Of a DNA stretch of 18,976 nucleotides, positions 1 through 17,430 are shown piece after piece. The stretch is from a virus (taxonomy: Duplodnaviria; Heunggongvirae; Uroviricota; Caudoviricetes): positions 1-18,976 of the IMG/VR virus record IMGVR_UViG_3300037189_028117. The stretch is one strand, 5' to 3'. The stretch's first letter is position 1. Every line of letters starts with the position of its first letter. The translations under genes were made by a program, and so were the position numbers. Under the pieces are notes generated by a model. The model searched no databases and was not told the origin of the DNA. It saw nothing but the letters and a program-made list of their open reading frames with translations.

Positions 1-21
1 TTATTTTTTATTGAAAAGCCA

Positions 22-261
22 ATGAAATTATTGCATTTTACTTTGTCTAGTTTTTTAGGAATACCGATTGAAGACATTATATCAAATAAAGACGGATACT
101 TAAAAGTTGAAAAGTTTTCTTCAAAAGAATCTGCTGAAAATTATCTTCAATTCATTTTAGATAATTATAAAAAACATCCATTGTGTCAAAAAGAAAGATT
201 CCGTATAATGGATTAAGAAGAATTAAATGAACTCATAATTATGAAAGAAATTATAGAATGA
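22..261 (+). pseudogene. Small hypothetical protein with in-frame TAA at 214-216; paralogue of 258-530
   Basis: ORF 22..216 stops at TAA, but the frame continues EELNELIIMKEIIE-TGA (259-261), which overlaps ATG 258 and aligns with the IIDEEELKELLLLSEVIS end of the next gene. The frame is open from base 1, so the true start may lie upstream of the window. Confidence 0.55.
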
Positions 262-530
262 AATATTATTTATTAAAAGAAAATATACAAGCAATTATTT
301 TTAAATCAACATATTATGAAAATGTATATCACTCAGTAAAATTATTTAAATTCAACAAAACAATTAATGATTCAAGATTAAAAGTTTTAGAATTTGAAAC
401 AATTGATTTGGCAAATCATTGCTTGTCTGATATTTTATTTCTTCATAGCGAAGAAATTAAAGATAATATTAAAATAATAGATGAAGAAGAATTGAAAGAA
501 TTACTTCTTTTAAGCGAAGTTATTTCTTAA
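258..530 (+). CDS. Hypothetical protein (small LKVxxF family), ends LSEVIS
   Basis: 90-aa ORF; shares the LKVxxFxxxxxAxxxLxxIL pattern with the upstream ORF. Confidence 0.75.
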   Translation: MKYYLLKENIQAIIFKSTYYENVYHSVKLFKFNKTINDSRLKVLEFETIDLANHCLSDILFLHSEEIKDNIKIIDEEELKELLLLSEVIS

Positions 531-544
531 ATAGAAAGATTAAA

Positions 545-760
545 ATGACAGAAAACATATATTATTACATGTTAGTAATAAAGCCTTATGCAAATAAATC
601 TTTATCTGCATATTTAGATAAAAACACTGGCAAAATTTTGTTGTTCAAAAACAAATTACAAGCGGAAAAGTTTCAAAGAAAATACGCTACATATGCTTAC
701 GATTGTATCTTATACAAAGAATATTTAGAATACAAAACATTAGAGGAGATTATAACATAA
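545..760 (+). CDS. Hypothetical protein, ends LEEIIT
   Basis: 71-aa ORF preceded by AGAAAG; TAATG overlap with the next gene. Confidence 0.7.
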   Translation: MTENIYYYMLVIKPYANKSLSAYLDKNTGKILLFKNKLQAEKFQRKYATYAYDCILYKEYLEYKTLEEIIT

Positions 761-1782
761 TGGCAAAATTCATTCAAAATTACAAAAATTTACATATTAT
801 GCCAGATGGGGCAAATGAAATACATGACACCCTTCCATTAGGTTCTTATGAGTTAAAATGGGATGACCGACAAAAGATTTTTTATCTTTACAAAGCAGAA
901 GAATCTAAAATACCCACAAAAATATATGGTAACCAAGAATCTATTGCAAAGAAAATTATAAAAACTTTTTTTCACAAGAATAGCAACTGCGGTGTTCTTC
1001 TAAGCGGAACAAAAGGTACTGGCAAAACAATGTTAGCAAAGCTTATTTCTAATTATTCAAAATTACCTACAATCATTATTAATGTTAACTTTTTAACTGA
1101 TGATCTTGCATCTAGCTTTTTAACATTCATTCAAGATTTAAATCAAAATTGCGTCATAATTTTTGATGAATTTGAAAAGAATTATGATAATGAATCTCAA
1201 GAAAGATTACTAACTTTGCTTGATGGTATAAGTAATTCCAATAAGTTATTTATATTCACTGTTAATAAAGAATATAAAGTATCTGAATTTCTATTAAATA
1301 GACCTGGAAGAATATTATTTCACATTAAGTATAATAAACTTGATGAAGCATCCACCATCCAATATGCCGAAGAAAGTTTAAATAATAAAGATTATTTAAA
1401 GGAAATAATTGAACTTAGAGATCTGATAGTAGATTTTAACTTCGATATGCTCAAGTCTCTTGTAGATTACTGCAATTTGCACGAAGAATCTCCTAAAGAA
1501 GCAATTAAAATATTAAATATTGGCGAGAATTCATCTCACTCATTTGTAGAGTATGAGGTTTTTAAAGATAATAATAAGTATACAGGCATTTGCGGCCCAC
1601 ACAATATTACTGGAGAAAATGGATTCTGGATAAATCATGAATTAAAAGACTCTAACTTTATAGAAGTATATGTTTCTGACAACACTATTTTTGAAACGAA
1701 GAATGGTTGGAGTTATGGAACATATAGCGGAATTAATTTTAAGTTTAGAAAAACAAAACAAACATTCAGAATGGATTTTTAA
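760..1782 (+). CDS. AAA+ ATPase (single domain)
   Basis: Walker A GTKGTGKT, Walker B IIFDE, LLDG, sensor-1 FIFTVN, arginine-finger region NRPGRI. Start moved from 703 to ATG 760 because of GAGGAG at 743-748 and the TAATG overlap. Confidence 0.9.
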   Translation: MAKFIQNYKNLHIMPDGANEIHDTLPLGSYELKWDDRQKIFYLYKAEESKIPTKIYGNQESIAKKIIKTFFHKNSNCGVLLSGTKGTGKTMLAKLISNYSKLPTIIINVNFLTDDLASSFLTFIQDLNQNCVIIFDEFEKNYDNESQERLLTLLDGISNSNKLFIFTVNKEYKVSEFLLNRPGRILFHIKYNKLDEASTIQYAEESLNNKDYLKEIIELRDLIVDFNFDMLKSLVDYCNLHEESPKEAIKILNIGENSSHSFVEYEVFKDNNKYTGICGPHNITGENGFWINHELKDSNFIEVYVSDNTIFETKNGWSYGTYSGINFKFRKTKQTFRMDF

Positions 1783-2537
1783 TGAAAATAGCTTTAGTTT
1801 CAGATGTTCATACGGAACATTACCCATCAGATATGGGAAGAAAAATTTTACAAAAAATATCAAAAACAAAAGCTGATGCTTTGGTTGTTGCCGGTGATTT
1901 ATCCACCATGCAATATATAAAATATGCTTTTAGTATTTTGTGTGATAATTTTGAAAATGTAATTTTTGTTTCTGGTAATCATGAATATTATAATTCCTCA
2001 ATTAAACAAACAAACGATATTTTGGAAGAATGTTCTGATAAACATAAAAATTTACACTGGCTAAATAATTCTTCCGTCAATATTAATGGAAAAACTTTTA
2101 TTGGAGGAACTCTTTGGTATCCAAAGCTAAAAGATGGCGAAGAACATTTCTTTAAAAGATTTAACAAATTCAATGGCAATATTGAATGGTTATGGTCAGA
2201 TTTCGAAGTTATTAAAAACTTTGAATATTGGTATTTCGAAGAACACAATAAATGTAAAGATTTTTTATTTAAAAACTTAAAAGACGGAGATATAGTTGTA
2301 TCTCACATGCTACCTACATTTAATTGTGTTCATGAAAGGTGGAAATCTTCTCTAACAAACTGTTTCTTTAACGCAAGGTGTGATGATATTTTAGAAAATA
2401 TAACTCCTTCTTACTGGTTATTTGGCCATACGCATCACAGGATGAATATAAAAGAAAATGGTTGCGTTTGCCTGTCAAACCCGGTAGGATACCCTAATGA
2501 AACCGGTGGTTATATAGAAACTATTATTGAGGTTTAG
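1782..2537 (+). CDS. Calcineurin-like metallophosphoesterase
   Basis: Motifs DVH, GD, GNHE, HM and GHTH in canonical order. Confidence 0.9.
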   Translation: MKIALVSDVHTEHYPSDMGRKILQKISKTKADALVVAGDLSTMQYIKYAFSILCDNFENVIFVSGNHEYYNSSIKQTNDILEECSDKHKNLHWLNNSSVNINGKTFIGGTLWYPKLKDGEEHFFKRFNKFNGNIEWLWSDFEVIKNFEYWYFEEHNKCKDFLFKNLKDGDIVVSHMLPTFNCVHERWKSSLTNCFFNARCDDILENITPSYWLFGHTHHRMNIKENGCVCLSNPVGYPNETGGYIETIIEV

Positions 2538-2541
2538 CTTT

Positions 2542-3052
2542 TTGAAACATACTGACAAACTAAAAGAACTTGAACTTCATCTTCAGGAGAAATATTCTGA
2601 GGATATTAGTTCTTTTTCTTTTGAATTATGGTCAGGAATATCAACTTATTATTTCTTATCAGAAGAGTTTATTGAAAAATATTCCAATCAAGTTGATTGG
2701 AGGAGGATTTGCGCAAATCAAAAATTATCTGAACAATTTATCGAAAAAATATTCAGATAAACTTAATTGGATTAGGATAAGTTTTTGTCAAGTTTTATCC
2801 GAAAGGTTTATATTAAAACATTCAGATAAAGTTAGTTGGGGAACCATTGGAATTAAACAAGAATTATCTGAAAAATTTATAGAAGAATACTCAGATAAAC
2901 TTAATTGAGAGTCTATTTCTAGATATCAAAAATTATCTAAAAAATTCATTGAAAAGCATAAAAATAAAATTAATATTCTTTGTTTAATTGATAACGAAAA
3001 CATCTCAGAAGAAACTAAACAAGAAATTAATTTATTGAAAGAAATCATATGA
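2542..3052 (+). pseudogene. Disrupted 23-aa tryptophan-repeat protein (5 repeats)
   Basis: TTG 2542 after GAGGT. One extra A in the A6 run at 2744-2749 shifts the frame (EK-YSDK). TGA at 2906-2908 sits at the conserved Trp position (KLN*ESISRYQ). The frame ends LLKEII-TGA overlapping ATG 3049. Confidence 0.85.
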
Positions 3053-3285
3053 TCAAAAAAGTTTTAAAAGAAAAATTTGAAAATGTCACAAAAATAAATG
3101 TTTTTCATATTCCGGAAATTGGAGATATTGTCTTTGATAAAGATGGAAATGAAGGTACTTGCACGGATGTTATCCATCTTTGGCATGGAAGCATTTTTCA
3201 AATATTTGATGGGGAAAAATACGGAACGTTAAATGAAGACCCCTTCAAATCAAAGGTTTTGATGGTCAAAAAAAATAATCAATAA
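3049..3285 (+). CDS. Hypothetical protein
   Basis: 78-aa ORF with an ATGA-coupled start. Confidence 0.7.
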   Translation: MIKKVLKEKFENVTKINVFHIPEIGDIVFDKDGNEGTCTDVIHLWHGSIFQIFDGEKYGTLNEDPFKSKVLMVKKNNQ

Positions 3286-3299
3286 AAAAGTATATTTAT

Positions 3300-3734
3300 G
3301 TGGATGAATTATTAGAATTATCTGATTTTTTCTTTAAAATTGCTTCAAGCCCCGAATATATGAAGCAATATATGGCAAACCGTTACCATAATGTAAGGAA
3401 TAAAATTATAAATGATCTTGGTGGGAAATGCAATAAATGCGGAATAACAAACGTACCGTTTGAAATTGATCATATAGATTCTTCAAAAAAAACATTCAGA
3501 GCAGCAGATGCTCATTCAGTTTCAGAAGAAAGATTAAATAAAGAATTACCAAATTTGCAACTTTTATGCAATCCTTGTCATAAAGAGAAAACAAAAGAAA
3601 GTTGGGATTATGGTACAAATAAACCTTCTCATGGAACATATTGGATGTATAGAAAATATAAGTGTCGGTGTAATGAATGCACTATAGCTTATAAAGAAAA
3701 GAAAAAAGAATGGAATTCTAAAGGTTTGGGTTGA
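3300..3734 (+). CDS. HNH endonuclease with C-terminal HGT-x3-Y-x4-CRCxxC motif
   Basis: LGGKCNKCG, EIDHID, NLQLLCNPCHKEKT, then HGTYWMYRKYKCRCNEC. Start is GTG 3300 or ATG 3360. Confidence 0.85.
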   Translation: MDELLELSDFFFKIASSPEYMKQYMANRYHNVRNKIINDLGGKCNKCGITNVPFEIDHIDSSKKTFRAADAHSVSEERLNKELPNLQLLCNPCHKEKTKESWDYGTNKPSHGTYWMYRKYKCRCNECTIAYKEKKKEWNSKGLG

Positions 3735-3799
3735 TTTTCCTAATTATATTAGGTTTATTGGCTTATTTCTTTTGGCCAAAACAATAAGAAAGAAAAAAT

Positions 3800-4702
3800 A
3801 TGAATTTAGGATATGCTTGCATTAATACCGAATTGCAATCTAAAGGCATTCAATGCTCTAGATGTATGATTAAAAGAACCTTTTTAGATAAAGGTATTAA
3901 TTATTGTGCCGAATTAGCTGAAAAAAATTGCGAAGATTTATTTGAAGTTGTAAAATGGAATAATAAAAACAATATAAAATTATTCAGAATTACATCCGAA
4001 TTATTTCCTTGGTGTTCTGAATATGATATAAATTCTTTACCAAATATTAATCAAATAAAATCAATATTAGAAATCGTTGGAAAAGAAGCAAATAAAGAAA
4101 ATCAAAGATTAACATTTCATCCTGGACCATTTAATGTTTTAGCTTCTCATAAAGAAGATGTGGTAAATAAGACAATTAAAGAACTGCAAGATCATGCTTT
4201 AATTATGGATTTCATTGGAATGCCGCAAAATCATTGGTCAAAGATAAATATTCATATTGGCGGAGCTTATGGGGAAAAAGAAGAAACCGCAAAGAATTTT
4301 GTTAAAAATTTTCAAAAACTAAACGAGTCTGCAAAAAAGAGACTAACTCTAGAAAACGATGATAAGAAAAATCTATATTCAGTTGATGAACTTTACAAGT
4401 ATATTTTCTCAGAATGCGGAATTCCTATTGTATATGATGCTCACCATCATGCGATAGGTTCTAACCCAAACAATCTTTCTCATGAAGAAGCTTTAAAGCT
4501 TGCCCATTCTACATGGGCAGATATTCGTCCAGTTTGCCATATGTCAAGCTCGGCTCAATTGGAGGGTAAGAAATGTCCAATACAAGCTCATTCAGATTAT
4601 ATTTTATCAAAATTTGACAATTGTGGTCTAGATTTGGATCTCATGTTGGAAGCAAAACAAAAAGAACAAGCTTTATTTGATTATTTAAAAAAATATGAAT
4701 AA
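3800..4702 (+). CDS. uvsE: UV DNA damage repair endonuclease
   Basis: LGYACIN, FRITSELFP, RLTFHPGPF, HIGG, RLTLENDD, DAHHH, HSDY and MLEAKQKE match UvsE/UVDE motifs. Confidence 0.93.
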   Translation: MNLGYACINTELQSKGIQCSRCMIKRTFLDKGINYCAELAEKNCEDLFEVVKWNNKNNIKLFRITSELFPWCSEYDINSLPNINQIKSILEIVGKEANKENQRLTFHPGPFNVLASHKEDVVNKTIKELQDHALIMDFIGMPQNHWSKINIHIGGAYGEKEETAKNFVKNFQKLNESAKKRLTLENDDKKNLYSVDELYKYIFSECGIPIVYDAHHHAIGSNPNNLSHEEALKLAHSTWADIRPVCHMSSSAQLEGKKCPIQAHSDYILSKFDNCGLDLDLMLEAKQKEQALFDYLKKYE

Positions 4703-5141
4703 ATTCAACTTAATATTTAATAGATATTCTGAAAAAGAATTGGAAGATAATGTTAATTTTTTTGATGAAAGTGATTGGTCAAGAATTTCTTGTCATCAAA
4801 AATTATCAGAACAATTCATAGAAAAACATTCAGATAAAATTCATTGGAATTCCATTTCTGCATACCAAAATTTATCTAAAGAATTTATTGAAAAATACTC
4901 TGATAAAATTTATTGGGAATTGATTTCTGAATGTCAAAATTTATCCGAAGATTTTATAGAAAAACACTCAGATAAAATTTATTGGGATTGTATCTCTTTA
5001 TCTCAAAAATTATCCGAAGAATTTATAAAAAAACATTTTAATAAAATTGATATTAATTATTTAATGAGAAATGAAAAGGTTTCTGATAAATTAAAAAACA
5101 AAATTAAAAAAGAAATTGATTTATTGAAAGAAATTATATGA
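4695..5141 (+). CDS. 23-aa tryptophan-repeat protein (4 repeats)
   Basis: Repeats of xxWxxISxxQxLSExFIEKxSDK; ends LLKEII. Confidence 0.9.
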   Translation: MNKFNLIFNRYSEKELEDNVNFFDESDWSRISCHQKLSEQFIEKHSDKIHWNSISAYQNLSKEFIEKYSDKIYWELISECQNLSEDFIEKHSDKIYWDCISLSQKLSEEFIKKHFNKIDINYLMRNEKVSDKLKNKIKKEIDLLKEII

Positions 5142-5509
5142 CGCATAATTTAAGTCTAAGTAATAAAAAATATTCAGAAGAAACTTTAGAAAAATATATT
5201 AATTCATTTACTAAATGGGATTGGTATTATATTTCTTACTGTCAGGTTTTATCTGAAAAGTTTATAGAAAAATATTCAGACAGGCTTGATTGGCGTGACA
5301 TTTCTTGGAGTCAAAAATTATCAGAAAAATTTATAGAAAAACATTCAAATAAAATTGATTGGAAAGAAATTTCTCAATATCAAAAGTTATCTGAAGAATT
5401 TATAAAAAAACATTTTGATAAAATTAATATTAAATTTTTAATGCTTAATGGTGAAATTTCTGAAAAAATTAAAAAAGAAATAAAAACTTTGAAAGAAATA
5501 ATACAATGA
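5138..5509 (+). CDS. 23-aa tryptophan-repeat protein (3 repeats)
   Basis: Same repeat; ends TLKEIIQ; close paralogue of 6928-7308. Confidence 0.9.
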   Translation: MTHNLSLSNKKYSEETLEKYINSFTKWDWYYISYCQVLSEKFIEKYSDRLDWRDISWSQKLSEKFIEKHSNKIDWKEISQYQKLSEEFIKKHFDKINIKFLMLNGEISEKIKKEIKTLKEIIQ

Positions 5510-5679
5510 ATTTAAAAGAACAAACAAAAATAAGAGAATATATAAGAAAAAATTTCAAAAACTTCTTAATTGAAGGGGAATTTGATTATGTGATAGCCGC
5601 TAAATCCGCAATCAAAGAACTTTCCCTTTCAAAAGAATTTGAAGATGATGTTTTAAACATATCCGCAGAAATTGAATAA
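5506..5679 (+). CDS. Small hypothetical protein (57 aa, MNLKEQTKIREY...SAEIE)
   Basis: Not in the ORF track. ATGA-coupled to the previous gene and fills the gap to 5682. Confidence 0.7.
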   Translation: MNLKEQTKIREYIRKNFKNFLIEGEFDYVIAAKSAIKELSLSKEFEDDVLNISAEIE

Positions 5680-5681
5680 CA

Positions 5682-6032
5682 ATGTGGTTCTATTTTAAAC
5701 CTAAAGAATACAACTCAGATAATCCAATCTTCTTAGAAGCAGATTCTATTGAAGAAGCTAAAACAATTTTAGAAGAAAAAGATATTCAAGATTTTCTTTA
5801 CTTGCAACCAGAAGAACATCTTGACATAATTTCCGCTTCAGCGTACGATAGAGGGTGCGAAACGGTTTGGTTCCTTGGGCAGTTTTCATATAAGGAAAAA
5901 CAAGGAATTTCCAACCCAAACGAATACATATCTTACCAAAATTGGATTAAAAAAGATTATGGTAAAATGATAATTCGAAAAGATTATAAGTTAATCAAAA
6001 AAGATCCAAAAGATGATGTGGGCCAAATGTAG
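5682..6032 (+). CDS. Hypothetical protein
   Basis: 116-aa ORF in the gene-dense run. Confidence 0.75.
   Translation: MWFYFKPKEYNSDNPIFLEADSIEEAKTILEEKDIQDFLYLQPEEHLDIISASAYDRGCETVWFLGQFSYKEKQGISNPNEYISYQNWIKKDYGKMIIRKDYKLIKKDPKDDVGQM
5821..5849 (+). promoter_or_regulatory. Putative sigma70-type promoter inside a CDS
   Basis: TTGACA (5821-5826), 17 nt, TACGAT (5844-5849). Confidence 0.55.
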
Positions 6033-6132
6033 GATATGTAATGATTGGTATTACATGGCTCAACCAGAAAAAGATGGAAAAATAACATGTTATACATGCA
6101 AAGAAAAAAGGAAAAATCTTGGGATTAAGTGA
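6013..6132 (+). CDS. Small zinc-ribbon-like protein (39 aa)
   Basis: MMWAKCRICNDWYYMAQPEKDGKITCYTCKEKRKNLGIK has two CxxC pairs; not in the ORF track. Confidence 0.65.
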   Translation: MMWAKCRICNDWYYMAQPEKDGKITCYTCKEKRKNLGIK

Positions 6133-6141
6133 AATATATGT

Positions 6142-6291
6142 ATGCCTCGTGAACAAATATTTCCGATATTATCTTTATTTCTATCTTTAGGAGCTTCCAT
6201 TTCATATTTTGCTCAATCAAATGTTGGGAAAGGATTATACTGGTTATTAGGAGCTGGTATAACAATTGTTGTAACATGGGTAATAAAATAA
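6142..6291 (+). CDS. Small two-TM membrane protein (49 aa)
   Basis: MPREQIFPILSLFLSLGASISYFAQSNVGKGLYWLLGAGITIVVTWVIK has two hydrophobic segments; not in the ORF track. Confidence 0.6.
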   Translation: MPREQIFPILSLFLSLGASISYFAQSNVGKGLYWLLGAGITIVVTWVIK

Positions 6292-6578
6292 TAATAAAAG
6301 TTTTCAATAAAGAGTTTGAGCTTATTGAGGATACATATACATATATTTTAGATCAAAGTTGTATTTACAATAGATCTATGTATAAAAATAAAGCTTACAC
6401 TAGGCACCATTTATCTATTGGTTCTATTGATTTGGTTACTAAATCAAATGAGAATTTGAATGAACTTTTAAATGAAGCTTCTAAAGTTTTTGAAAAGCTT
6501 ATTATAAATAAATATTTACTTATAAAAGATTTTATTCCAGAAGTTGAAAATTATATTACTTTAAAAGAAATTATATGA
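6276..6578 (+). CDS. Hypothetical protein, ends TLKEII
   Basis: 100-aa ORF with no Trp repeat but the same C-terminal/junction motif. Confidence 0.75.
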   Translation: MGNKIIIKVFNKEFELIEDTYTYILDQSCIYNRSMYKNKAYTRHHLSIGSIDLVTKSNENLNELLNEASKVFEKLIINKYLLIKDFIPEVENYITLKEII

Positions 6579-6931
6579 AAAAACATAATTTAGATTTTAT
6601 TATTAATAATAAATATTCTGAAAAAGAATTAGGGGATAATATTAATTTGTTTGATAGATTTGATTGGGGCTGGATATCAGCTTTTCAAGTATTGTCTGAA
6701 AGTTTTATTGAAAAACATATAGATAAAATTGCATTTTCAAACATTTCAGAGTGTCAAAAACTTTCAGAGCAGTTTATAGAAAAATATTCAGACAAACTTG
6801 ATTGGTGGTACATTTCTGAATTTCAGATTTTATCTGAAGAATTTATAAGAAAACATATAAATAAAATTAATATAAATTTTTTATTAGAAAACAAAAATGT
6901 TTCTTATGAAATTATGAAAGAAATTATATGA
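6575..6931 (+). CDS. 23-aa tryptophan-repeat protein (3 repeats, short tail)
   Basis: Same repeat; ends IMKEII. Confidence 0.9.
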   Translation: MKKHNLDFIINNKYSEKELGDNINLFDRFDWGWISAFQVLSESFIEKHIDKIAFSNISECQKLSEQFIEKYSDKLDWWYISEFQILSEEFIRKHINKININFLLENKNVSYEIMKEII

Positions 6932-7308
6932 AACATAATTTAAATTTAAGTAATAAAAAATATTCAGAAGAAACGTTAGAAAAATATATTAATTCATTTA
7001 ACTTTAATGATTGGTATTATATTTCTTTCTGTCAACTTTTATCTGAAGAGTTTATAGAAAAACATTCAGACAGACTTGATTGGCGTGACATTTCTTTATT
7101 TCAAAAATTATCCGAAGAATTTATAGAAAAACATTCGGATAAATTAAGTTGGATGTGGGTCTCTGAAAAACAAAAATTATCCGAAGAATTTATAAGAAAA
7201 CATATAGATAAAATTAATATTGAAGGGTTAATGGAAAACAAAAACATTTCTCAAAAATTTAAAAATAAAATTAAATTAGAAGTCTCTTTATTGAAAGAAA
7301 TTATATGA
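6928..7308 (+). CDS. 23-aa tryptophan-repeat protein (3 repeats)
   Basis: Same repeat; ends LLKEII. Confidence 0.9.
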   Translation: MKHNLNLSNKKYSEETLEKYINSFNFNDWYYISFCQLLSEEFIEKHSDRLDWRDISLFQKLSEEFIEKHSDKLSWMWVSEKQKLSEEFIRKHIDKINIEGLMENKNISQKFKNKIKLEVSLLKEII

Positions 7309-7754
7309 CACATAATTTAGATTTGATTAATAAAAAATATTCCCAAGAAGAATTAGAAGAAAGTGTTAATTTACTCAGTTGGGTTGATTGGTATCATATA
7401 TCTAGAAACCAAAAATTATCAGAATCATTCATAGAAAAATATTCAGATAAAGTTGATTGGCTTAGTATATCTTGCGATCAAAAATTATCTGAAGAATTTA
7501 TAGAGAAATATCAAGACAAACTTAGTTGGATTGATATTTCATTTTATCAAAATTTATCAGAAGAATTTATTGAAAAACATTCCGATAAAGTTTATTGGGA
7601 TCACATTTCTTTTCGCCAAAAACTTTTAGAAGAATTCATTAGAAAACATATAGATAAAATTGATATCAAACAATTAATGAAAAATAGAAAGCTTTCGAAA
7701 AATTTAAAAAACAAAATTAGAAAAGAAATTAAAGTTTTAATGGAGATTATATAA
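7305..7754 (+). CDS. 23-aa tryptophan-repeat protein (4 repeats)
   Basis: Same repeat; ends VLMEII-TAA. Confidence 0.9.
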   Translation: MTHNLDLINKKYSQEELEESVNLLSWVDWYHISRNQKLSESFIEKYSDKVDWLSISCDQKLSEEFIEKYQDKLSWIDISFYQNLSEEFIEKHSDKVYWDHISFRQKLLEEFIRKHIDKIDIKQLMKNRKLSKNLKNKIRKEIKVLMEII

Positions 7755-7762
7755 GGAGAATC

Positions 7763-8863
7763 ATGAGAAAATTAGTACATATTGAAAAAGTAAAATCATT
7801 AAAACCAATTGATGGTGCCGACTTCATTGAGTTGGCTCAGATTCTGGATTGGCAACTTATTGTAAAAAAGGGTGAATTTAAAGTTGGTGACCTTGCCGTC
7901 TATCATGAAATAGATTCTCTTTGTCCAGAAAAAGAATGTTATGAATTTTTAAGACAAAAAAAATTCAAAATAAAAACAATGAAAATGAAAGGGGAGTTAA
8001 GCCAAGGTTTAGCTTTACCACTTTCAATATTACCACCTGGCCATTATAAAGAAGGGCAAGATGTAACAGATATTCTTGGGGTATTGCATTGCGACTCAGA
8101 ATCTAGAGAGAATATGCTTTCTAGAAAAGCTCCTAGATCTAAATTTATGAAGTTTATGTTTAAATTTTCTTGGTTTAGAAAATTAAATAATTACTTTACA
8201 TTTAAAGATAAATCAGGTTGGCCAGAATTCGTACAACATACAGATGAAGAAAATATTCAAGCAATATTTTCAAAAGTTAAAAGAGATTTTGGTGATCAAA
8301 CTTTTTATGTTACAGAAAAAGTTGATTATCAATCAGCTACGTATTTTACTAGAAATGTTAAAAAATTTATTTTTGGCATTCCTGTTACAAAGAAAATATT
8401 TGGAGTATTATCTAGAAGCTTGTATAAAAAAACCGATGATGGTTCCTTATGGTGGAAAAATGCAAAGAAATTTAATATTGAACAAATTCTTAGATCTTAT
8501 GATGAAGAATTAACAATTCAAGGTGAGTCTGGAGATACAAATGTTCAAGGTAACAAGTATCAATTAAAAGAATCAAGCTTTTGGGTTTTTAATATTATTA
8601 ATAATAGAACTGGATATCATTATTCCATTGATGAAATGGAAGACTTCTGTAATAAACATGACTTAAAAATGGCACCAGTATTAGATAAGAATTTTAAACT
8701 ACCAGAGACTGTTGGAGAATTAATTGAATATAGTAGAGGAAAATCTGTTATTAACCACAAAACTGATAGGGAAGGTGTAGTTATACGTTTAATTAAAGAT
8801 GGGAAGAAACTTGTTTCTTTTAAAGTTAAAAACCCAGATTTTCTAATAAAGAATAAAGAATGA
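7763..8863 (+). CDS. RNA ligase, DRB0094-like family
   Basis: N-terminal PIDGADFIE...VKKGEFKVGDLAVYHEIDS module; nucleotidyltransferase motifs TEKVDY (I), QGE (III), REGVV (IV), FKVKN (V). SD AAGGAG upstream. Confidence 0.88.
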   Translation: MRKLVHIEKVKSLKPIDGADFIELAQILDWQLIVKKGEFKVGDLAVYHEIDSLCPEKECYEFLRQKKFKIKTMKMKGELSQGLALPLSILPPGHYKEGQDVTDILGVLHCDSESRENMLSRKAPRSKFMKFMFKFSWFRKLNNYFTFKDKSGWPEFVQHTDEENIQAIFSKVKRDFGDQTFYVTEKVDYQSATYFTRNVKKFIFGIPVTKKIFGVLSRSLYKKTDDGSLWWKNAKKFNIEQILRSYDEELTIQGESGDTNVQGNKYQLKESSFWVFNIINNRTGYHYSIDEMEDFCNKHDLKMAPVLDKNFKLPETVGELIEYSRGKSVINHKTDREGVVIRLIKDGKKLVSFKVKNPDFLIKNKE

Positions 8864-9345
8864 TATTTAATCAACCAAAACCAACAAACTTAACGAAACT
8901 AAAAATACAAGAAATAGCAGAGAAATACTTTTATTCTTCTGGTTTTGGCGAAGATATAATTAAATTTGTAAATAGTATTGGTGGTTATGTACACTTTTTA
9001 CCGATAGATTACAAAATAGAACATTCTTTAATTGTTAAAAGAAAAGATAAGTTTGACATTTTCATACATGATTGTTTAGGATTAGCTAGAACAAAACATA
9101 GCATAGCCCACGAATTAGGTCATTATGTTTTACACTCTAACTTTGGAGAACAACCAATTATTGCAGAACCTTATGGCAAATCTATAATTGAATCGGAAGC
9201 AAATTGGTTCGCTATGGCATTTTTAATGCCACAAAAGGAATTTAAAGAAGAATTACTTAGACGTAATCAGAATATTGATTTAATTTGTTCATTGCATAAT
9301 TTTAAAGAACAAATAGTTAAAGCTAGAGTTGATGAAATTATATGA
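8860..9345 (+). CDS. ImmA/IrrE-family Zn metallopeptidase
   Basis: SIAHELGHYVLH (HExxH) followed by ESEANWFAMAFLMP. Confidence 0.88.
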   Translation: MIFNQPKPTNLTKLKIQEIAEKYFYSSGFGEDIIKFVNSIGGYVHFLPIDYKIEHSLIVKRKDKFDIFIHDCLGLARTKHSIAHELGHYVLHSNFGEQPIIAEPYGKSIIESEANWFAMAFLMPQKEFKEELLRRNQNIDLICSLHNFKEQIVKARVDEII

Positions 9346-9608
9346 TTTACTTTGCATATCTTGAAAAACAAGGTTATAACATATTTTGTAAAAATAATAC
9401 ATTTGTAATGCCATATTTTTCTACAAGATGGATTTCAGAATCAGAAATTGAAAATTTTATATCAAATTATTGTTATTTTGATTTAAATGAAGAAGAATTT
9501 GAATTTTTTATGGAAAAATATATAAACCAAAGCCTTCGTAAAAAAATATATAAGGCAAAAGATATTAATGAATTCCTTAGTTTTATGAAATTGACGGAAA
9601 TAATATGA
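9342..9608 (+). CDS. Hypothetical protein, ends KLTEII
   Basis: 88-aa ORF, ATGA-coupled on both sides. Confidence 0.75.
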   Translation: MIYFAYLEKQGYNIFCKNNTFVMPYFSTRWISESEIENFISNYCYFDLNEEEFEFFMEKYINQSLRKKIYKAKDINEFLSFMKLTEII

Positions 9609-9868
9609 GAAAATTAAAAAGATTATTGTTTATATTAAAAAAAAGTATTTATAATACATCACATGAACCGGGGTTAATTGGGATGATTATAGCTATGTGT
9701 ACAAATTTATTTTTAATGCTTTATATAAATAAATTATTTATATATGACTTTATATATGCTTTATTATTTATGATACATTTGACCTATTTTGTTTTTCGTA
9801 TATTTATTCCTAATTGGAAAAAATGCGCTTATGAATATGATATTGGTTTATTGAATGAAATAATATGA
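9605..9868 (+). CDS. Small membrane protein, ends LLNEII
   Basis: 87 aa with two hydrophobic stretches; ATGA-coupled on both sides. Confidence 0.7.
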   Translation: MRKLKRLLFILKKSIYNTSHEPGLIGMIIAMCTNLFLMLYINKLFIYDFIYALLFMIHLTYFVFRIFIPNWKKCAYEYDIGLLNEII

Positions 9869-10248
9869 AAAAACATAATTTAGATTTAAAAAATAAAAAA
9901 TATTCTGAAAAAACCTTAGAAAAATATATTAATTTGTTTGATGAACATGATTGGGATTATATTTCTTCAAAACAAAAATTATCTGAGAAATTTATAGAAA
10001 AACACATAAATGAAATTTGCTGGGAATGTATATCTTCATATCAAGAATTATCCGAAGGTTTTATAGAAAAAAACATAGATAATGTAGATTGGTTTTATAT
10101 TTCTGGAGATCAAAAATTATCTGAAAAGTTTATAAGAAAACATATAGATGAAATTGATATTCATAATTTAATGTATAATAAAAATATTTCAGAAGAATTT
10201 AAAAATAAAATCAAAAAAGAAATCAACTTATTAAAAGAAATTATATGA
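9865..10248 (+). CDS. 23-aa tryptophan-repeat protein (3 repeats)
   Basis: Same repeat; ends LLKEII. Confidence 0.9.
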   Translation: MKKHNLDLKNKKYSEKTLEKYINLFDEHDWDYISSKQKLSEKFIEKHINEICWECISSYQELSEGFIEKNIDNVDWFYISGDQKLSEKFIRKHIDEIDIHNLMYNKNISEEFKNKIKKEINLLKEII

Positions 10249-10603
10249 AAAAACATAATTTAAATTTAACAGGTGAAAAATATTCCGAAGAAGAATTGGA
10301 ATATACCATTAATTTATTTGAAGTTAATGATTTTAATAAAATTTCAATGTATCAAAAGCTATCTGAACAATTTATAGAAAAATATTCAGATAAAGTTTAT
10401 TGGAATTATATTTCTACTTATCAAAATTTATCTGAAGAATTTATTGAAAAGTATTCTGATAAATTAATTTGGCTCTATATTTCTAAATATCAGGTTTTAT
10501 CTGAAAACTTTATAAGAAAACACATTGGTCAAATTGATATTAATTGGTTAATGTATAATAAAAATATTTCAGAAGAATTTAAAAATAAAATCAAAAAAGA
10601 AAT
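10168..10603 (+). repeat. 56-bp exact direct repeat (10168-10223 and 10548-10603)
   Basis: TTAATGTATAATAAAAATATTTCAGAAGAATTTAAAAATAAAATCAAAAAAGAAAT occurs at both sites, 380 bp apart, in the tails of two tandem paralogues. Confidence 0.9.
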
Positions 10604-10628
10604 TAGCTTATTAAAAGAAATAATATGA
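10245..10628 (+). CDS. 23-aa tryptophan-repeat protein (3 repeats)
   Basis: Same repeat; ends LLKEII. Confidence 0.9.
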   Translation: MKKHNLNLTGEKYSEEELEYTINLFEVNDFNKISMYQKLSEQFIEKYSDKVYWNYISTYQNLSEEFIEKYSDKLIWLYISKYQVLSENFIRKHIGQIDINWLMYNKNISEEFKNKIKKEISLLKEII

Positions 10629-11197
10629 AAAACCCATTTAAACTTGAAAAACCATACGCTTTACCATCACGCTTGTTTTCAAAACAAAAAGTTGGACAAT
10701 ACACATGGGAAGATTGGGAAGATCAAATGAAAAGAGAAAAGCCTTTTTTATTCTTTTTAAATGAAACAATTCCAAAAACTTTTCGTAAAATATATAATCG
10801 TTATATTAAACCTCCAATTTATTGGATAAATTACTTCATAATAAAACATCAAAGTTGGATTCATATAAATAAAAATATAAAACTTGTGCATGATATTTAT
10901 AACTATTATTATATAATGTCTTCAAGGGAAAAAATGGAAAAATCTTTAATTGCTTCCTTTTTATCTGAAGTAAATAGAAGACTACCAAATTTAGCGTATT
11001 CTAGTTCTTCTGACAAAGAATACGATGAAATACTTAATGTATATAATTTCTTTACAAAAACTTTACCAGAAGAAATAAATAATCTTTACAATAATAAAAA
11101 CTTATCTCCGAAAGAATATAATGATATTGAAGATAAGCTAATAGAAATTCAAGACCAATATATAGAAAGATTGTTTCAAATAAGAAAAATATTATGA
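10625..11197 (+). CDS. Hypothetical protein
   Basis: 190-aa ORF, ATGA-coupled on both sides. Confidence 0.8.
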   Translation: MKNPFKLEKPYALPSRLFSKQKVGQYTWEDWEDQMKREKPFLFFLNETIPKTFRKIYNRYIKPPIYWINYFIIKHQSWIHINKNIKLVHDIYNYYYIMSSREKMEKSLIASFLSEVNRRLPNLAYSSSSDKEYDEILNVYNFFTKTLPEEINNLYNNKNLSPKEYNDIEDKLIEIQDQYIERLFQIRKIL

Positions 11198-11856
11198 AAA
11201 TAGCAGTTATTTCAGATTTGCATATAGGTCACTGTGATGAAACTCATCAGTTAAAACACTCTGATCATGAGTTTTCTAATTTCCTATTTTATTTGGAATC
11301 AAATTATGATAAGGTAATACTTTTAGGAGATATTTTTGAAATTGAAATGGAATTATTCCATTCCGAAGAAAAAACATATGATTTATGTAAACAAAATCAC
11401 AATTTAATTACAAAAAGATTTAACTCAAACAAATACTCTTATATATATGGAAATCATGATTTAATAGGAAAAAAATTTGGCGGAATTGAAAGTTTAATTA
11501 TAAATTACAATAATTTAAATATAAAGTTCATTCATGGACATCAATTCGATAAACTTTATACAAAATTTAATAGATTTCTATTTCTTGGTGGAGTTTTATT
11601 AAAGTTAAATTTAAAAGATGCTTATAATAAAATAAGCGGCATAGATCTGCATAATAAAGACTTTATCAATGAAGCTATTGATTATGCTAAGAATAATAGT
11701 TATGACGTTATTGTTACAGGTCATACTCATAATCCATGTGTCTTATATCAAGATAATGTTGTTTTTTTAAATAGCGGATCATGCGTTGAAAACATAACAT
11801 ATTTACATATGGATTTAGATAAGAAAGAATATTTAATTAAAGGATTTGAAGATTAA
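11194..11856 (+). CDS. Metallophosphoesterase, LpxH/UDP-2,3-diacylglucosamine diphosphatase-like
   Basis: ISDLHIG, LLGDIFE, GNHD, HGHQFD, GHTH, NSGS. Confidence 0.8.
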   Translation: MKIAVISDLHIGHCDETHQLKHSDHEFSNFLFYLESNYDKVILLGDIFEIEMELFHSEEKTYDLCKQNHNLITKRFNSNKYSYIYGNHDLIGKKFGGIESLIINYNNLNIKFIHGHQFDKLYTKFNRFLFLGGVLLKLNLKDAYNKISGIDLHNKDFINEAIDYAKNNSYDVIVTGHTHNPCVLYQDNVVFLNSGSCVENITYLHMDLDKKEYLIKGFED

Positions 11857-11857
11857 T

Positions 11858-12898
11858 ATGAAAATACTATATGCTATAGCTGGTGAAGGAATGGGGCATG
11901 CTGTTAGATCAAGCGTAATAATTGATCATCTCATTTCTAAAAATCACGATGTTCACATAATTTCATCAGGAAAGCCTTTTGATTTTTTAAATTCAAAATA
12001 TAATAATTGTTCAAAAATAACCGGATTAACAATATCTTATAAAGAAAATAAAATAGATAAATTCAAAACAATATTAAATAATTTAAAATCTTCAAAAGAT
12101 ATAATTAAAAATATAAAAACAATAAATAAAACATTCAAAAATGTAAAACCAAAGTTGGTTATAACTGATTTTGAATCATCCGCTTGTTATTACGCAAAAA
12201 TATTTAAAATACCAGTTATATCTATTGATAATATTCAATCAATTAATAGATGTAAAGTTGATAAAAAATTAAAAAATAAAAATTATAAAATCGCAAAATC
12301 TTTAACAAAAGCTAGAACTCCAGGTTGTCAAAAATATTTAATTACTTCTTTTTTTGAAAATAAAATAATTAAAAAAGACACAAATGTTTATAATCCAATT
12401 ATAAGAAAACAAATTATAAATAAAAAACCAGAATATTTAGATCATATACTTGTTTATAACACTTCAGATTTACCTTCTGATTTAATAAAAAAACTAAATA
12501 AAACAAATGAAAATTACATTATTTATCAAAGAAATTGCGAAAAAGAAAATAAAGTAAATAATTTATTATTTAAACCATTTAATGAAATTTCATTTATTAA
12601 AGATTTATCAGAATGTAAAGCCGTAATTTGTGGCGGTGGATTTACTGTTATTTCAGAATCTTTATATTTAAAGAAGCCAATACTTTCAATTCCTATAAAA
12701 GATCATTTTGAACAGGAAATGAATGCTTTCTATGTTGAAAAACTTGGGTATGGAATGTATTGTGAATTAAACGATGTAAACATAAATAAGTTCTTAAAAA
12801 GGTTATCTTTTTATAAGGACAATTTAAAAGATTACAAACATGATAATAATGAAAAAATATTAAAAAATATAAATTCTATTATAGAAAGCATTAAATGA
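11858..12898 (+). CDS. GT-B glycosyltransferase, MJ1255/VC2487-like
   Basis: MKILYAIAGEGMGHAVRS, ITDFE, IDN, GGFT..SESLYLKKP, HFEQEMNA. Start set at ATG 11858 rather than TTG 11846. Confidence 0.85.
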   Translation: MKILYAIAGEGMGHAVRSSVIIDHLISKNHDVHIISSGKPFDFLNSKYNNCSKITGLTISYKENKIDKFKTILNNLKSSKDIIKNIKTINKTFKNVKPKLVITDFESSACYYAKIFKIPVISIDNIQSINRCKVDKKLKNKNYKIAKSLTKARTPGCQKYLITSFFENKIIKKDTNVYNPIIRKQIINKKPEYLDHILVYNTSDLPSDLIKKLNKTNENYIIYQRNCEKENKVNNLLFKPFNEISFIKDLSECKAVICGGGFTVISESLYLKKPILSIPIKDHFEQEMNAFYVEKLGYGMYCELNDVNINKFLKRLSFYKDNLKDYKHDNNEKILKNINSIIESIK

Positions 12899-12969
12899 TA
12901 CTTTGGTTTATAATCTTATTCATAGTTATTTTTATATTTTTTGGAACCATTCGTTCGGTTAAAAGATAA
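12895..12969 (+). CDS. Putative single-TM micropeptide (24 aa)
   Basis: MILWFIILFIVIFIFFGTIRSVKR; ATGA-coupled to the glycosyltransferase. Confidence 0.45.
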   Translation: MILWFIILFIVIFIFFGTIRSVKR

Positions 12970-12971
12970 GC

Positions 12972-13000
12972 TTGACTAATCTTTCCGGTGGGTGTACTGT
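12972..13000 (+). promoter_or_regulatory. sigma70-type promoter of the helicase gene
   Basis: TTGACT (12972-12977), 17 nt, TACTGT (12995-13000), intergenic, 30 nt before ATG 13031. Confidence 0.7.
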
Positions 13001-13024
13001 TCACGTTCCACCTACCGAGGAAAG
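12981..13024. repeat. GC-rich inverted repeat around the -10 box
   Basis: CTTTCCGGTGGGTG (12981-12994) pairs with CACCTACC-GA-GGAAAG (13009-13024), with one G-T mismatch and a 2-nt bulge. Confidence 0.7.
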
Positions 13025-13030
13025 GTATTT

Positions 13031-14581
13031 ATGCGAAAGTTTTATAAAAAACCAACTTATACAAAGCAAGAAAGATTCACTCCCGCTAATGGATGGAATG
13101 AACAATTCTTAAATGTTTTTGATTTTGTAACCAATAATTCTGGCAATGGTGCAATTGAAGCTGTTGCTGGTGGTGGAAAAACCACTGCGCTTGTTGAATC
13201 TATTATTAGATGGAGCGAAGTTAATCCAAGAAAAACGGCAGTTTTTATTGCTTTCAATGTTTCTGTAAAAGAAGAAGCGGCAAAACGTCTTGCTGGTTAT
13301 CCAGTTGATGTTATTACTTGTCATGGTCTTGGCTTTAAAGCCATTACAAATTATTACAAAGAAAAGTTTGATGTTCAAGGCCCAACTGGCGAATATATGC
13401 AAAAGCTTGCTCAAAACGAATTTGGTTATGAACAAGAATCTTTTGATGATCGTTGTGCTTTGCTTGAATTGGTTTCAAAAGCAAAGGCATCTCTTTCTTC
13501 TACAGATGAAGAACTTCATAAGATTGTAACAGATTTTGGAATAGAGTTTGTTCATGTATCTAAAGATAAGCTTGTATCAACTGCTAAAAAATTACTTCAT
13601 TATACCCAGTATAATTTTGGATCTAATTTTGGAAAGAAAATTATTACATTTGATGACCAAATTTGGTTACCAATTGTAAATAAATTGGATGTTCCACAAT
13701 ATGATGCAGTTTTTGTTGATGAAGCTCAGGATTTATCAAAAGCAAGACAAACTTTAGTTAAGTTGGCCATGAAGAAAGATTCAAGAATTTTCTTGGTTGG
13801 AGATAAGTTTCAAGCAATTTATCAATTCAGCATGGCCGATTCTAATTCATTAGATAATATGATTGAACAACATAATTGCACAAGATTACCTTTAAGTGTA
13901 ACTTGGCGTTGCGGAAATAAGATTGTTGAATCTGCTCAAAAATTTAATCCCGATATTATCGCTGCTCCTAATGCTATTGATGGGGAAATAAATTCAATTG
14001 AAGAAAACTCTTTAATTGATGAAATTAAGTATGGTGATGTCCTCCTAAGTAGGACAAACGCTCCTATTGTAAGATGGTTTTTTAAATTGGCCAAGATAAA
14101 CAAGAAAGCAAAAATCCTTGGAAAAGATTATGGTTCAATGCTTGCCATGAGAATTAAGAAGTGGGAATCTGAACACACCAAAAATGGATATTCTTTTTCT
14201 GCCAATGATATTTTAGAATACAATGAAGATTGGTATTCGGCAATTTCCGAAAAGAGTAAGAAGCCAAGCACAAGGCAAAAGGACGAATATGAAACCATTA
14301 AAGTAATGGTTGAGTTGATTGGTTCTGATTTGGATAGTTATCAGTCCGTAAAAGATGTTTTGAACATCTGTTATAGTTTTTCTTCGGATGAATCTAAAGG
14401 CTTACCTGATAAGGATTGTGTTGTACTTAGTACAATTCATAAATTTAAAGGTTGTGAAAGGGATAGAGTTTTTGTAATTAAAAAAACTTTATCAGAAGAA
14501 TCTGAAGAGGAAAGAAATCTTTGTTATGTAGCTATTACAAGAGCAAAGAAAAACCTAGTTTGGATTGAAAAAGGTGAATAA
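13031..14581 (+). CDS. SF1A UvrD/Rep-like helicase
   Basis: AVAGGGKTT, VDEAQD, GDKFQAIY, TWRC, STIHKFKGCE, YVAITRAK. Start set at ATG 13031 after GAGGAAAGG. Confidence 0.92.
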   Translation: MRKFYKKPTYTKQERFTPANGWNEQFLNVFDFVTNNSGNGAIEAVAGGGKTTALVESIIRWSEVNPRKTAVFIAFNVSVKEEAAKRLAGYPVDVITCHGLGFKAITNYYKEKFDVQGPTGEYMQKLAQNEFGYEQESFDDRCALLELVSKAKASLSSTDEELHKIVTDFGIEFVHVSKDKLVSTAKKLLHYTQYNFGSNFGKKIITFDDQIWLPIVNKLDVPQYDAVFVDEAQDLSKARQTLVKLAMKKDSRIFLVGDKFQAIYQFSMADSNSLDNMIEQHNCTRLPLSVTWRCGNKIVESAQKFNPDIIAAPNAIDGEINSIEENSLIDEIKYGDVLLSRTNAPIVRWFFKLAKINKKAKILGKDYGSMLAMRIKKWESEHTKNGYSFSANDILEYNEDWYSAISEKSKKPSTRQKDEYETIKVMVELIGSDLDSYQSVKDVLNICYSFSSDESKGLPDKDCVVLSTIHKFKGCERDRVFVIKKTLSEESEEERNLCYVAITRAKKNLVWIEKGE

Positions 14582-14593
14582 TATTATATAACT

Positions 14594-14824
14594 TTGGAGA
14601 TTTTGATGAAAACAGAAAAGCAAAAAACAGCAGAAAAAGTAAAAAACTTTGGTACATTTTTGGGAACATTATGGGTTGATAAGTTTGGCCCAGTTGATTT
14701 TTTTGAATATAAAGATGTTACATGGGGTTTATATAAGCAAGATGCGTTTTTTGCAAATCAACTTGGTGACTTTTATATTAAGAGCAATGGAATCTCAAAA
14801 GAAATTGAGTATATAGACAACTGA
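14594..14824 (+). CDS. Hypothetical protein
   Basis: 76-aa ORF; start is TTG 14594 or ATG 14606 (GGAG upstream of the latter). Confidence 0.7.
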   Translation: MEILMKTEKQKTAEKVKNFGTFLGTLWVDKFGPVDFFEYKDVTWGLYKQDAFFANQLGDFYIKSNGISKEIEYIDN

Positions 14825-14845
14825 AATGTTTCTGAAACGTAACGG

Positions 14846-14874
14846 TTGACGGGCCGGCTTGGACGTGGTATAAG
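14846..14874 (+). promoter_or_regulatory. sigma70-type promoter with extended -10
   Basis: TTGACG (14846-14851), 17 nt, TATAAG (14869-14874) preceded by TGG; intergenic, upstream of ATG 14896. Confidence 0.7.
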
Positions 14875-14895
14875 AGTTGTAGAAAGTGAGGCATT

Positions 14896-15447: not shown

Positions 15448-15464
15448 TTTTCAGCCATATTTAT

Positions 15465-15599
15465 ATGGCACAAAAGCATGATTATTATCACAAATGTCGA
15501 TGCAAAGATTGCATAAATTTTGAAATTATATTGACAAGCAGAATAAATTCAGAAAAAGAAGAATGCAAAATTTCAATAAAGAAAAATTATCAGAGTTAA
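15465..15599 (+). CDS. Possible small Cys-motif peptide (44 aa)
   Basis: MAQKHDYYHKCRCKDC...; not in the ORF track; no clear SD; overlaps the next ORF by 37 nt. Confidence 0.3.
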   Translation: MAQKHDYYHKCRCKDCINFEIILTSRINSEKEECKISIKKNYQS

Positions 15600-15775
15600 A
15601 AGAAAAAATATTATCCGAAACAAACGGAAAAAATATAAAAATAGAAGATTTAATATCATTAATTGATGTTTCAGAAAAATTTATTTTATATTGTGTCAAC
15701 AATAATTTATTATCAGAATTTTATTTTGATAAAGAAACAAAATCATTTTCAAGAAAGTTGAGATTGCTCAAATGA
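15563..15775 (+). CDS. Hypothetical protein
   Basis: 70-aa ORF. Confidence 0.6.
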   Translation: MQNFNKEKLSELKEKILSETNGKNIKIEDLISLIDVSEKFILYCVNNNLLSEFYFDKETKSFSRKLRLLK

Positions 15776-15900: not shown

Positions 15901-15915
15901 GAAAGGTAATTAAAT

Positions 15916-16326: not shown

Positions 16327-16368
16327 TCATCATTACACTTATTTACTTAATATAAGAAAGGCTTAAAA

Positions 16369-16941: not shown

Positions 16942-16947
16942 ATAGGA

Positions 16948-16976: not shown

Positions 16977-16985
16977 ATCATTAAT

Positions 16986-17423: not shown

Positions 17424-17430
17424 GGGTACT

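Follow-up and report, generated by a model that had tools for sequence, protein, structure and literature searches.

Tryptophan-repeat paralogues of an uncultured huge phage as candidate modular protein binders

What are the small tryptophan-repeat proteins that recur along a stretch of phage DNA, nearly constant over most of the repeat and different from one another at the same few residues, and what might they do? We address this question in a window of 18,976 nt (the whole stretch of DNA that was analysed), which makes up the opening 19 kb of a viral contig of 115,645 nt. The original prediction described an eight-member library and proposed that it is a diversifying repertoire of small binders or, alternatively, of nucleic-acid readers with a position code. 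The source is an uncultured AT-rich huge phage with an expanded paralogue family. The eight genes are real and mostly functional, and they belong to the tryptophan repeat gene family, which is found in entomopoxviruses, giant viruses and jumbo phages.

The window contains eight tryptophan-repeat paralogues, seven intact and one broken, all on the + strand. A repeat HMM recovers the predicted 28 units in these eight copies, with a period of exactly 23 residues and a split of 5, 4, 3, 3, 3, 4, 3 and 3. Copy 1 (2542..3052, +), the five-repeat member, is probably a pseudogene; it starts with TTG, an additional A within the A-run at 2744-2749 produces a +1 frameshift, and a TGA occupies 2906-2908, where the repeat tryptophan is expected. 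Copy 2 (4695..5141, +; 148 aa, 4 repeats) has an atypical N-cap (MNKFNL...), and its stop is overlapped through an ATGA by the start of copy 3 (5138..5509, +; 123 aa, 3 repeats). Further along on the same strand lie copy 4 (6575..6931, +; 118 aa, 3 repeats), copy 5 (6928..7308, +; 126 aa, 3 repeats) and copy 6 (7305..7754, +; 149 aa, 4 repeats), the last being the protein that we modelled and used as the query for all searches. Copy 7 (9865..10248, +) and copy 8 (10245..10628, +) each encode 127 aa with 3 repeats. Because these two have zero synonymous differences (pS 0.00) over the 12 C-cap codons compared, their C-caps suggest a local conversion patch. An alignment of the paralogues bears out the conservation of both the N-cap (M-K-K-H-N-L...K-K-Y-S-E) and the C-cap.

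The family genes are chained via ATGA stop/start overlaps, and the gene that follows has its ribosome-binding site and start codon within the conserved C-terminal tail. The in-frame TGA of copy 1 prompted us to consider genetic code 4, which we rejected. TGA terminates all eight family genes in the window; in copy 3 it comes one codon late, and in the other seven its place is precisely at the conserved tail, within the ATGA overlap with the next start. It stands at repeat position 1 in only 1 of 101 units. A promoter and terminator scan of the window found promoter-like sites to be rarer than in shuffled sequences, and no tRNAs were found there.

Across the whole contig the family has 48 matching places and about 35 ORFs; the 101 good units share the entropy profile of the window units. 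Tryptophan occupies position 1 in 93 of the 101, and the number of repeats per copy ranges from 2 to 6, compared to 3-5 in the window. The predicted library of eight thus describes the window correctly as a count of copies, but one of the eight is broken and the contig carries about 35. Decay extends beyond copy 1 to contig positions 52337-53030, 35547-35865 and 22001-22276; as several copies are decaying, single copies are therefore dispensable. We also considered variation driven by a diversity-generating retroelement (DGR) and rejected it, since no match to the reverse transcriptase model RVT_1 is present on the 115.6-kb contig (~27% of the genome) and it is old paralogues that differ, not members of one population.

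Per-position entropy in the 28 window units separates scaffold from variable sites, as had been proposed for the residue pairs after W and after IS. Positions 2, 3, 6 and 7 reach 3.57, 3.38, 3.71 and 2.82 bits, whereas W1, I4, S5, Q8, L10, S11, E12, F14, I15 and K17 are each at or below 0.6 bit, with positions 9, 13 and 23 intermediate (2.1-2.6 bits). The composition of the variable positions is strongly biased relative to the phage proteome. Tyr makes up 25.5% of them (6.1-fold) and Cys 7.7% (5.6-fold), Trp and Arg are enriched 2.6- and 2.2-fold, and Pro is absent, with Lys, Ile, Leu and Val under-represented, a composition that would not be expected of AT-rich DNA under neutrality either. 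By analogy with an antibody binding site, it can be described as paratope-like. At position 7, where 41% of units have Tyr, the side chain may be partly buried. Combinations of variable residues hardly ever recur, with 94 distinct quadruplets among 98 units; for the (2,3) pairs in these units, we counted 70 distinct combinations versus 72 in shuffled columns, so that recurrence is no greater than in shuffles.

The AlphaFold2 model of copy 6 (pLDDT 96.1, pTM 0.85) predicts a capped alpha-solenoid in which each repeat forms two short helices, in agreement with the solenoid fold that had been anticipated. In this model, helix A spans repeat positions 1-7 (W-x-x-I-S-x-x) and helix B positions 12-17 (E-E-F-I-E-K), the core is predicted to be built by W1, I4, S5, Q8, L10, F14 and I15, and the C-cap terminates in a long helix. 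Positions 2, 3, 6 and 7 correspond to b, c, f and g of a seven-residue helix; because the a, d, e face (W1, I4, S5) is conserved, we infer that the variable residues should line one outer face. This orientation was deduced from the DSSP string and helix geometry, and it agrees with the predicted lining of one solenoid face, with solvent exposure and contiguity of that face following by the same deduction. A two-copy homodimer prediction scored 0.01, which counts neither for nor against the model.

Comparison with solved structures places the fold only in a general class. Foldseek against the PDB with the copy 6 model returned a best E of only 0.22, and VIA-align over 48,161 chains gave generic PPR, ankyrin, alphaRep and HEAT solenoids with a best Z of 5.8, below the level that signifies kinship among helical repeats. 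By sequence, the PDB yielded only engineered OspA repeat constructs, which we rejected as a chance match of period.

Family membership is directly supported from several sides, and with it the link that the original prediction made to a 23-aa tryptophan-repeat family in entomopoxviruses. The five copies tested match PHROG 3532 with E of 9e-41 (copy 2) to 1e-30. In tblastn, Bacillus phage BpSp gp045, annotated "tryptophan repeat gene family protein", is 55% identical (E 6e-24), and phage G gp556 matches at E 3e-18, with identities to phage family members of 55-64%. Foldseek against BFVD, in which both query and targets are predicted structures, retrieves MSV027 of MsEPV (E 1.5e-13, TM 0.80, 43% identity), AMV029 (E 1e-11) and MSV205 (E 4e-12). 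The family was reportedly founded in the MsEPV genome paper of 1999. GenBank annotation and papers already use its name and give it as of 'unknown function', the label that its members also carry in the phage G paper; our window result is thus confirmatory, adding eight copies to a named family. The repeat matches ~9,900 clusters (50% identity), mostly viral, with up to ~40 copies per genome, while the window proteins match no Pfam family at E up to 1.

The named members include MSV027, MSV029 and MSV205 of MsEPV, AMV029 and AMV254 of AmEPV, and, among jumbo phages, BpSp gp045, phage G gp556-563 and the arrays of Listeria phage LPJP1. They have in common with the window copies the 23-residue repeat W-x-x-I-S-x-x-Q-K-L-S-E-E-F-I-E-K and multigene expansion in one large viral genome, and their predicted structures resemble that of copy 6 at TM 0.78-0.83 and 34-43% identity. 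In the cultivated phages LPJP1 and BpSp, scaffold and variable positions are the same as in the window. The window proteins differ in being minimal, with 118-149 aa, 3-5 repeats and no extra domain, compared to 5-12 repeats in LPJP1 genes and 290-630 aa in poxvirus members, and their N-cap is confined to this phage lineage, with different caps in BpSp and LPJP1. Some homologues carry the same repeats fused to a RING finger (P0074, P0138); an F-box is present in 32% of the members of one giant-virus cluster and in AMV254 (PMC7728225). Other fusions involve DUF7666, Peptidase_S74, an integrase and DarT; a Pfam scan of 17 long homologues showed no informative extra domains.

We then compared orthologues on three close-relative contigs (L002, L013 and L014; 94-97% nt identity). 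Variable sites had changed in 20.7% of residues, with an omega of 0.94-1.22 (1.16, CI 0.66-1.88), about the silent-site rate, versus 8.3% and an omega of 0.35-0.38 for the scaffold (Fisher p 3e-4) and 2.1% and 0.13 for neighbouring non-family genes. In every copy compared, purifying selection acts on scaffold and caps (omega 0.35-0.45). Because an omega near 1 with this interval fits neutrality or mixed regimes equally well, diversifying selection at the variable sites is no more than plausible, and the part of the original prediction that called the repertoire diversifying does not find the expected omega significantly above 1. Between paralogous repeats, pN/pS by column is uninformative because of saturation (pN 0.63-0.69). 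The paralogues are old (pS 0.3-0.8), and individual copies are nonetheless kept in the relatives. In L002, the orthologue of copy 3 is 88% identical, that of copy 4 has identical variable residues at 12 of 12 sites although the window copy has a C-cap five residues shorter, and that of copy 5 differs by block replacement of the second repeat. Turnover of whole genes is also seen: L014 (97% identical) has an indel spanning one family gene (~81480-82043), and L013 has an intact gene at the place of fragments in this contig. The RNA-ligase neighbourhoods L003-L010, taken from viral and metagenome collections, are too distant (34-67% identity), and the closest of them, L010, lacks family genes beside its RNA ligase.

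We regard it as somewhat probable that the family proteins are modular protein-binding units, each paralogue recognising a different host or phage protein via its variable face. They look like a binder set because four fast-changing, Tyr-rich residues per repeat fall on one helix face. Each gene would encode a free-standing mini alpha-solenoid consisting of the lineage-specific N-cap, 23-residue tryptophan repeats and a C-cap; positions 2, 3, 6 and 7 would point away from the core on helix A, and stacking of the repeats would form one continuous Tyr/Trp/Arg/Cys-rich surface, different in every paralogue, through which recognition might occur much as in ankyrin repeats or DARPins. The predicted small-binder repertoire is therefore retained for its fold, its outward face (deduced from helix geometry) and its paratope-like composition, and is no more than plausible as regards diversifying selection. 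Alternatively, the paralogues may share a non-specific or structural job, or be near-neutral passengers whose hypervariable sites are simply the least constrained surface positions. A variable-site omega whose interval includes 1, the fast turnover of copies (broken copies, the L014 indel, the intact L013 gene) and the saturated variation across paralogous repeats are what such an explanation expects, and we consider it unlikely. However, it does not readily account for a composition so far from neutral or proteome values, for orthologues that retain all 12 variable residues, for scaffold and cap constraint in every copy compared, or for the F-box and RING fusions in eukaryotic viruses, which imply target recognition.

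Two further readings assign the variable residues a more specific task. As TALE/PPR/PUF-like nucleic-acid readers, the proteins would recognise one base per repeat with the variable residues as a code; a modular solenoid with few variable residues per repeat, a weak structural likeness to PPR proteins (Z 4.4-4.8) and neighbouring genes that act on DNA or RNA (UvdE, RNA ligase, helicase and HNH nuclease) agree with this, but any helical repeat would be expected to match PPR and ankyrin proteins to this degree. Moreover, the near-absence of repeated quadruplets and of recurrent (2,3) pairs leaves no recurring code, window copies have only 3-5 repeats, and all of the seven proteins but copy 3, which is basic, are acidic or close to neutral (pI 5.2-6.5, net charge -5 to -1; overall range -5 to +3), making a position-code reader, as originally put forward, highly improbable. 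The proteins could also serve as substrate adaptors, with the caps docking all paralogues on a shared machine and the variable face picking the victim, the prokaryotic equivalent of what eukaryotic viruses have in their F-box and RING fusions. These fusions, the strong conservation of the lineage-specific N-cap among otherwise old paralogues, and the presence in the window of ClpP (18133-18717) and an AAA ATPase (760-1782) speak for adaptors. Yet the caps have no link to either ClpP or the ATPase, and in a huge phage, proximity within 19 kb says little. The tail is conserved at least partly for the ribosome-binding site and start codon that it contains, and a solenoid needs sealing caps anyway; we consider this reading very unlikely. 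Distinctly unlikely, too, is a version in which each of about 35 or more DARPin-like mini-binders disables or redirects a different host protein, e.g., one belonging to a defence system, with shared lineage-specific caps delivering the targets to a phage machine such as its ClpP or AAA+ protease, as the counterpart in a prokaryotic virus of the F-box and RING forms known from insect and giant viruses.

The modular binders that we favour resemble DARPins and natural ankyrin binders in design, since these also flank a few helical repeats with an N-cap and a C-cap and combine a fixed scaffold with few, aromatic-rich variable surface positions per repeat. Ankyrin structures match the copy 6 model only weakly (Z 4.1-5.0), their period is 33 residues and not 23, their variable residues sit at hairpin tips and not on a helix face, and the window proteins have no beta-hairpin, TPLH motif or Pfam Ank match (E up to 1); the likeness is best taken as a design analogy, not homology. 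LRV, LRV_2 and HEAT_PBS repeats are likewise short (~24-residue) all-helical solenoid units, and LRV_2 occurs in 17% of the members of one related Atlas cluster and HEAT_PBS in 15% of another's. However, the consensus is Leu-based in LRV and Trp-based here, the window proteins have zero matches to Pfam LRV or HEAT_PBS even at E 1, and no LRV structure is among the PDB matches listed. TALE and PPR proteins share the solenoid form and hypervariable residues at fixed repeat positions, but they have 34-35-residue repeats, few recurrent code residues and basic surfaces, none of which is found in the window proteins.

The family to which these genes belong is very large, extending from phages to giant viruses to insect poxviruses, and has neither a Pfam model nor a solved structure. 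As the cultivated phages LPJP1, BpSp and G share the repeat, the idea that its members are binders is testable now. If the variable helix face does bind, the arrays would form a major class of viral proteins for host manipulation that is as yet unexplored, and their very small units (~120 aa) would offer a ready scaffold for engineered binders.

The window covers nt 1-18,976 of a 115,645-nt IMG/VR viral contig (GC ~25%), whose CheckV completeness of 27% implies, by our own arithmetic, a genome of ~400 kb. Eight tryptophan-repeat genes lie on the same strand: copies 1 (2542-3052, five units), 2 (4695-5141, four), 3 (5138-5509, three), 4 (6575-6931, three), 5 (6928-7308, three), 6 (7305-7754, four), 7 (9865-10248, three), and 8 (10245-10628, three). 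A repeat HMM built from the contig detects 28 units in them, spaced at exactly 23 residues throughout. Per-position entropy across these units, a check suggested in the original prediction, is high at positions 2, 3, 6, and 7 (3.6, 3.4, 3.7, and 2.8 bits) and at most 0.6 bit at the scaffold residues W1, I4, S5, Q8, L10, S11, E12, F14, I15, and K17. The prediction of eight repeat genes with variable residue pairs on a fixed scaffold was right and not due to chance, and the conserved N-cap and C-cap it described are present in the alignment of the copies. Across the contig, we count 48 matching places and ~35 family ORFs (several broken), with 101 good units whose entropy profile matches that of the window units; the window holds only a fraction of a far larger set.

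Non-structural genes surround the copies: an AAA ATPase, two metallophosphoesterases, an HNH nuclease, UvdE, an RNA ligase, an IrrE-like M78 peptidase, a glycosyltransferase, a UvrD-type helicase, and ClpP. Both the ClpP protease (18133-18717) and the AAA ATPase (760-1782) are phage-encoded within the window. Separately, the highest-GC stretch of the window (13-15 kb, ~33%) contains a + strand ORF (14896-15447) whose product has a hydrophobic leader at its N-terminus, short repeats rich in Gly and Thr (T-G-G / D-N-T-G-G type), and a Cys-rich C-terminal part; the long antisense ORF that overlaps it (14778-15257) is probably a by-product of these repeats.

Pfam has no model for the repeat, and the phage family it matches, PHROG 3532 (E 9e-41), is of unknown function. 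By tblastn, matches occur in the cultivated jumbo phages Bacillus phage BpSp (39 or more places), Listeria phage LPJP1 (40 or more), Bacillus phage G (27), AgentSmith, and Clostridium phage c-st, and gp045 of BpSp carries the annotation “tryptophan repeat gene family protein.” The copy 6 model matches the predicted structures of the entomopoxvirus founders of that family at 34-43% identity (MSV027, E 1.5e-13, TM 0.80; also MSV205, MSV029, AMV029, and proteins of further entomopoxviruses), as well as phage G gp558-563. These founder and annotated phage matches establish family membership and verify the link to a 23-aa entomopoxvirus family made in the original prediction. A profile search, of the kind suggested in the original prediction, yielded thousands of matching clusters: among 1.84 billion cluster representatives, 9,876 matched at E ≤ 1e-3 and 5,551 at ≤ 1e-10, and the Atlas clusters with the repeat are nearly all viral (Uroviricota and Nucleocytoviricota). 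The literature only names the family, the phage G study labeling it “of unknown function”; the window genes are members of a known, named but unstudied family.

The genes commonly end in GAAAT[TCA]AT[TCA]TGA, which encodes E-I-I-stop and contains the ATG of the next gene. This motif has 28 instances on the contig's + strand and two on the opposite strand, with window occurrences (12 nt each) at 3041, 5130, 6567, 6920, 7297, 9334, 9597, 9857, 10237, and 10617, and it also closes the unrelated genes 6276-6578, 8860-9345, 9342-9608, and 9605-9868. Because stand-alone genes are preceded by an AAGAAAG-like ribosome-binding site, the K-E-I-I tail also serves the next gene as its ribosome-binding site and start. 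In a more distant relative (RNA ligase 67% identical), unrelated genes have similar tails, with I-I plus one residue at the end. The reading frame of copy 1 opens with TTG and shifts by +1 at a surplus A in the A-run (2744-2749), and a TGA (2906-2908) stands where a repeat's Trp codon belongs. Recoding of this TGA to Trp is excluded because all eight family genes in the window terminate in TGA, and in seven the stop falls at the conserved tail, within an ATGA overlap with the next start; on its sequence, copy 1 is read as a decaying pseudogene.

AlphaFold2, given a 20-sequence alignment, returned a model (pLDDT 96.1, pTM 0.85) with a helical N-cap, a helix A (positions 1-7) and helix B (12-17) per unit, and a C-cap whose last element is a 17-residue helix. 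No close solved structure was found by Foldseek (best E 0.22), and exhaustive structural alignment reached only generic PPR, ankyrin, and alphaRep solenoids (best Z 5.8). The original prediction asked whether the variable residues share one solenoid face. By the geometry of the seven-residue helix A, positions 2, 3, 6, and 7 lie opposite positions 1, 4, 5, and 8, where W, I, S, and Q are conserved; solenoid stacking of the A helices would merge the variable positions into a single surface.

The composition of the variable sites is far from both the phage proteome and the AT-biased neutral expectation: Tyr reaches 25.5% (6.1x the proteome), Cys 7.7% (5.6x), Trp is enriched 2.6x and Arg 2.2x, Lys, Ile, Leu, and Val are underrepresented, and Pro is absent. 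We compared orthologues from three short, colinear contigs of close relatives (L002, L013, and L014; 94-97% nucleotide identity), with omega CIs computed against pooled family dS. Residues changed at 20.7% of 116 variable-site codons (omega 0.94; 1.16 against pooled family dS, CI 0.66-1.88), versus 8.3% of 539 scaffold codons (0.35, CI 0.25-0.55; Fisher p 3e-4), 8.3% of 554 cap codons (0.45), and 2.1% of 2257 codons in neighboring non-family genes (0.13). The window genes alone give 1.22 at variable sites versus 0.32 at other repeat positions. The variable sites thus change at about the pace of silent sites, roughly three times that of the scaffold. An omega of 0.94-1.22, with a CI (0.66-1.88) that spans 1, falls short of demonstrating positive selection; the diversifying selection implied by the repertoire originally proposed is plausible.

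The paralogues are old (pS 0.3-0.8), with a few conversion patches. Copy 4 keeps every variable residue of its L002 orthologue (1665-2036) and lacks five C-cap residues, and in copy 5 the whole second repeat has been exchanged relative to L002:2033-2413, all four variable and several scaffold residues differing between identical flanking repeats. Phages with 97-99% identity in their other genes also differ in family gene content: one gene at contig 81480-82043 is absent from L014 (3024-3271), and an intact 150-aa gene in L013 (2081-2533) corresponds to three frame-broken fragments at 52337-53030. A DGR as the source of the variation was rejected, as no reverse transcriptase was found on the 115,645-nt contig.

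As for function, the original interpretation holds in part; it offered binders or nucleic-acid readers with a position code. The code is unlikely: 98 units contain 94 different residue quadruplets, their (2,3) pairs are about as diverse as with shuffled columns (70 distinct versus 72), pI is 5.2-6.5 for all but one of the seven intact proteins, and each copy in the window has only three to five repeats. Many homologues of ~240 aa join the repeat to DUF7666, and others couple it to RING fingers, a Peptidase_S74 chaperone domain, or an integrase; DarT with HD is also among its partners in Atlas clusters. One giant-virus cluster carries an F-box in a third of its members, and AMV254 is reported to be a family protein with an F-box (PMC7728225). 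Judged from these domain architectures, fusion to E3-ligase modules fits the expectation for a substrate-recognition domain. The best reading of the window genes, which we favor with moderate confidence, is a repertoire of binders in which each paralogue would recognize a different protein through its variable helix face.
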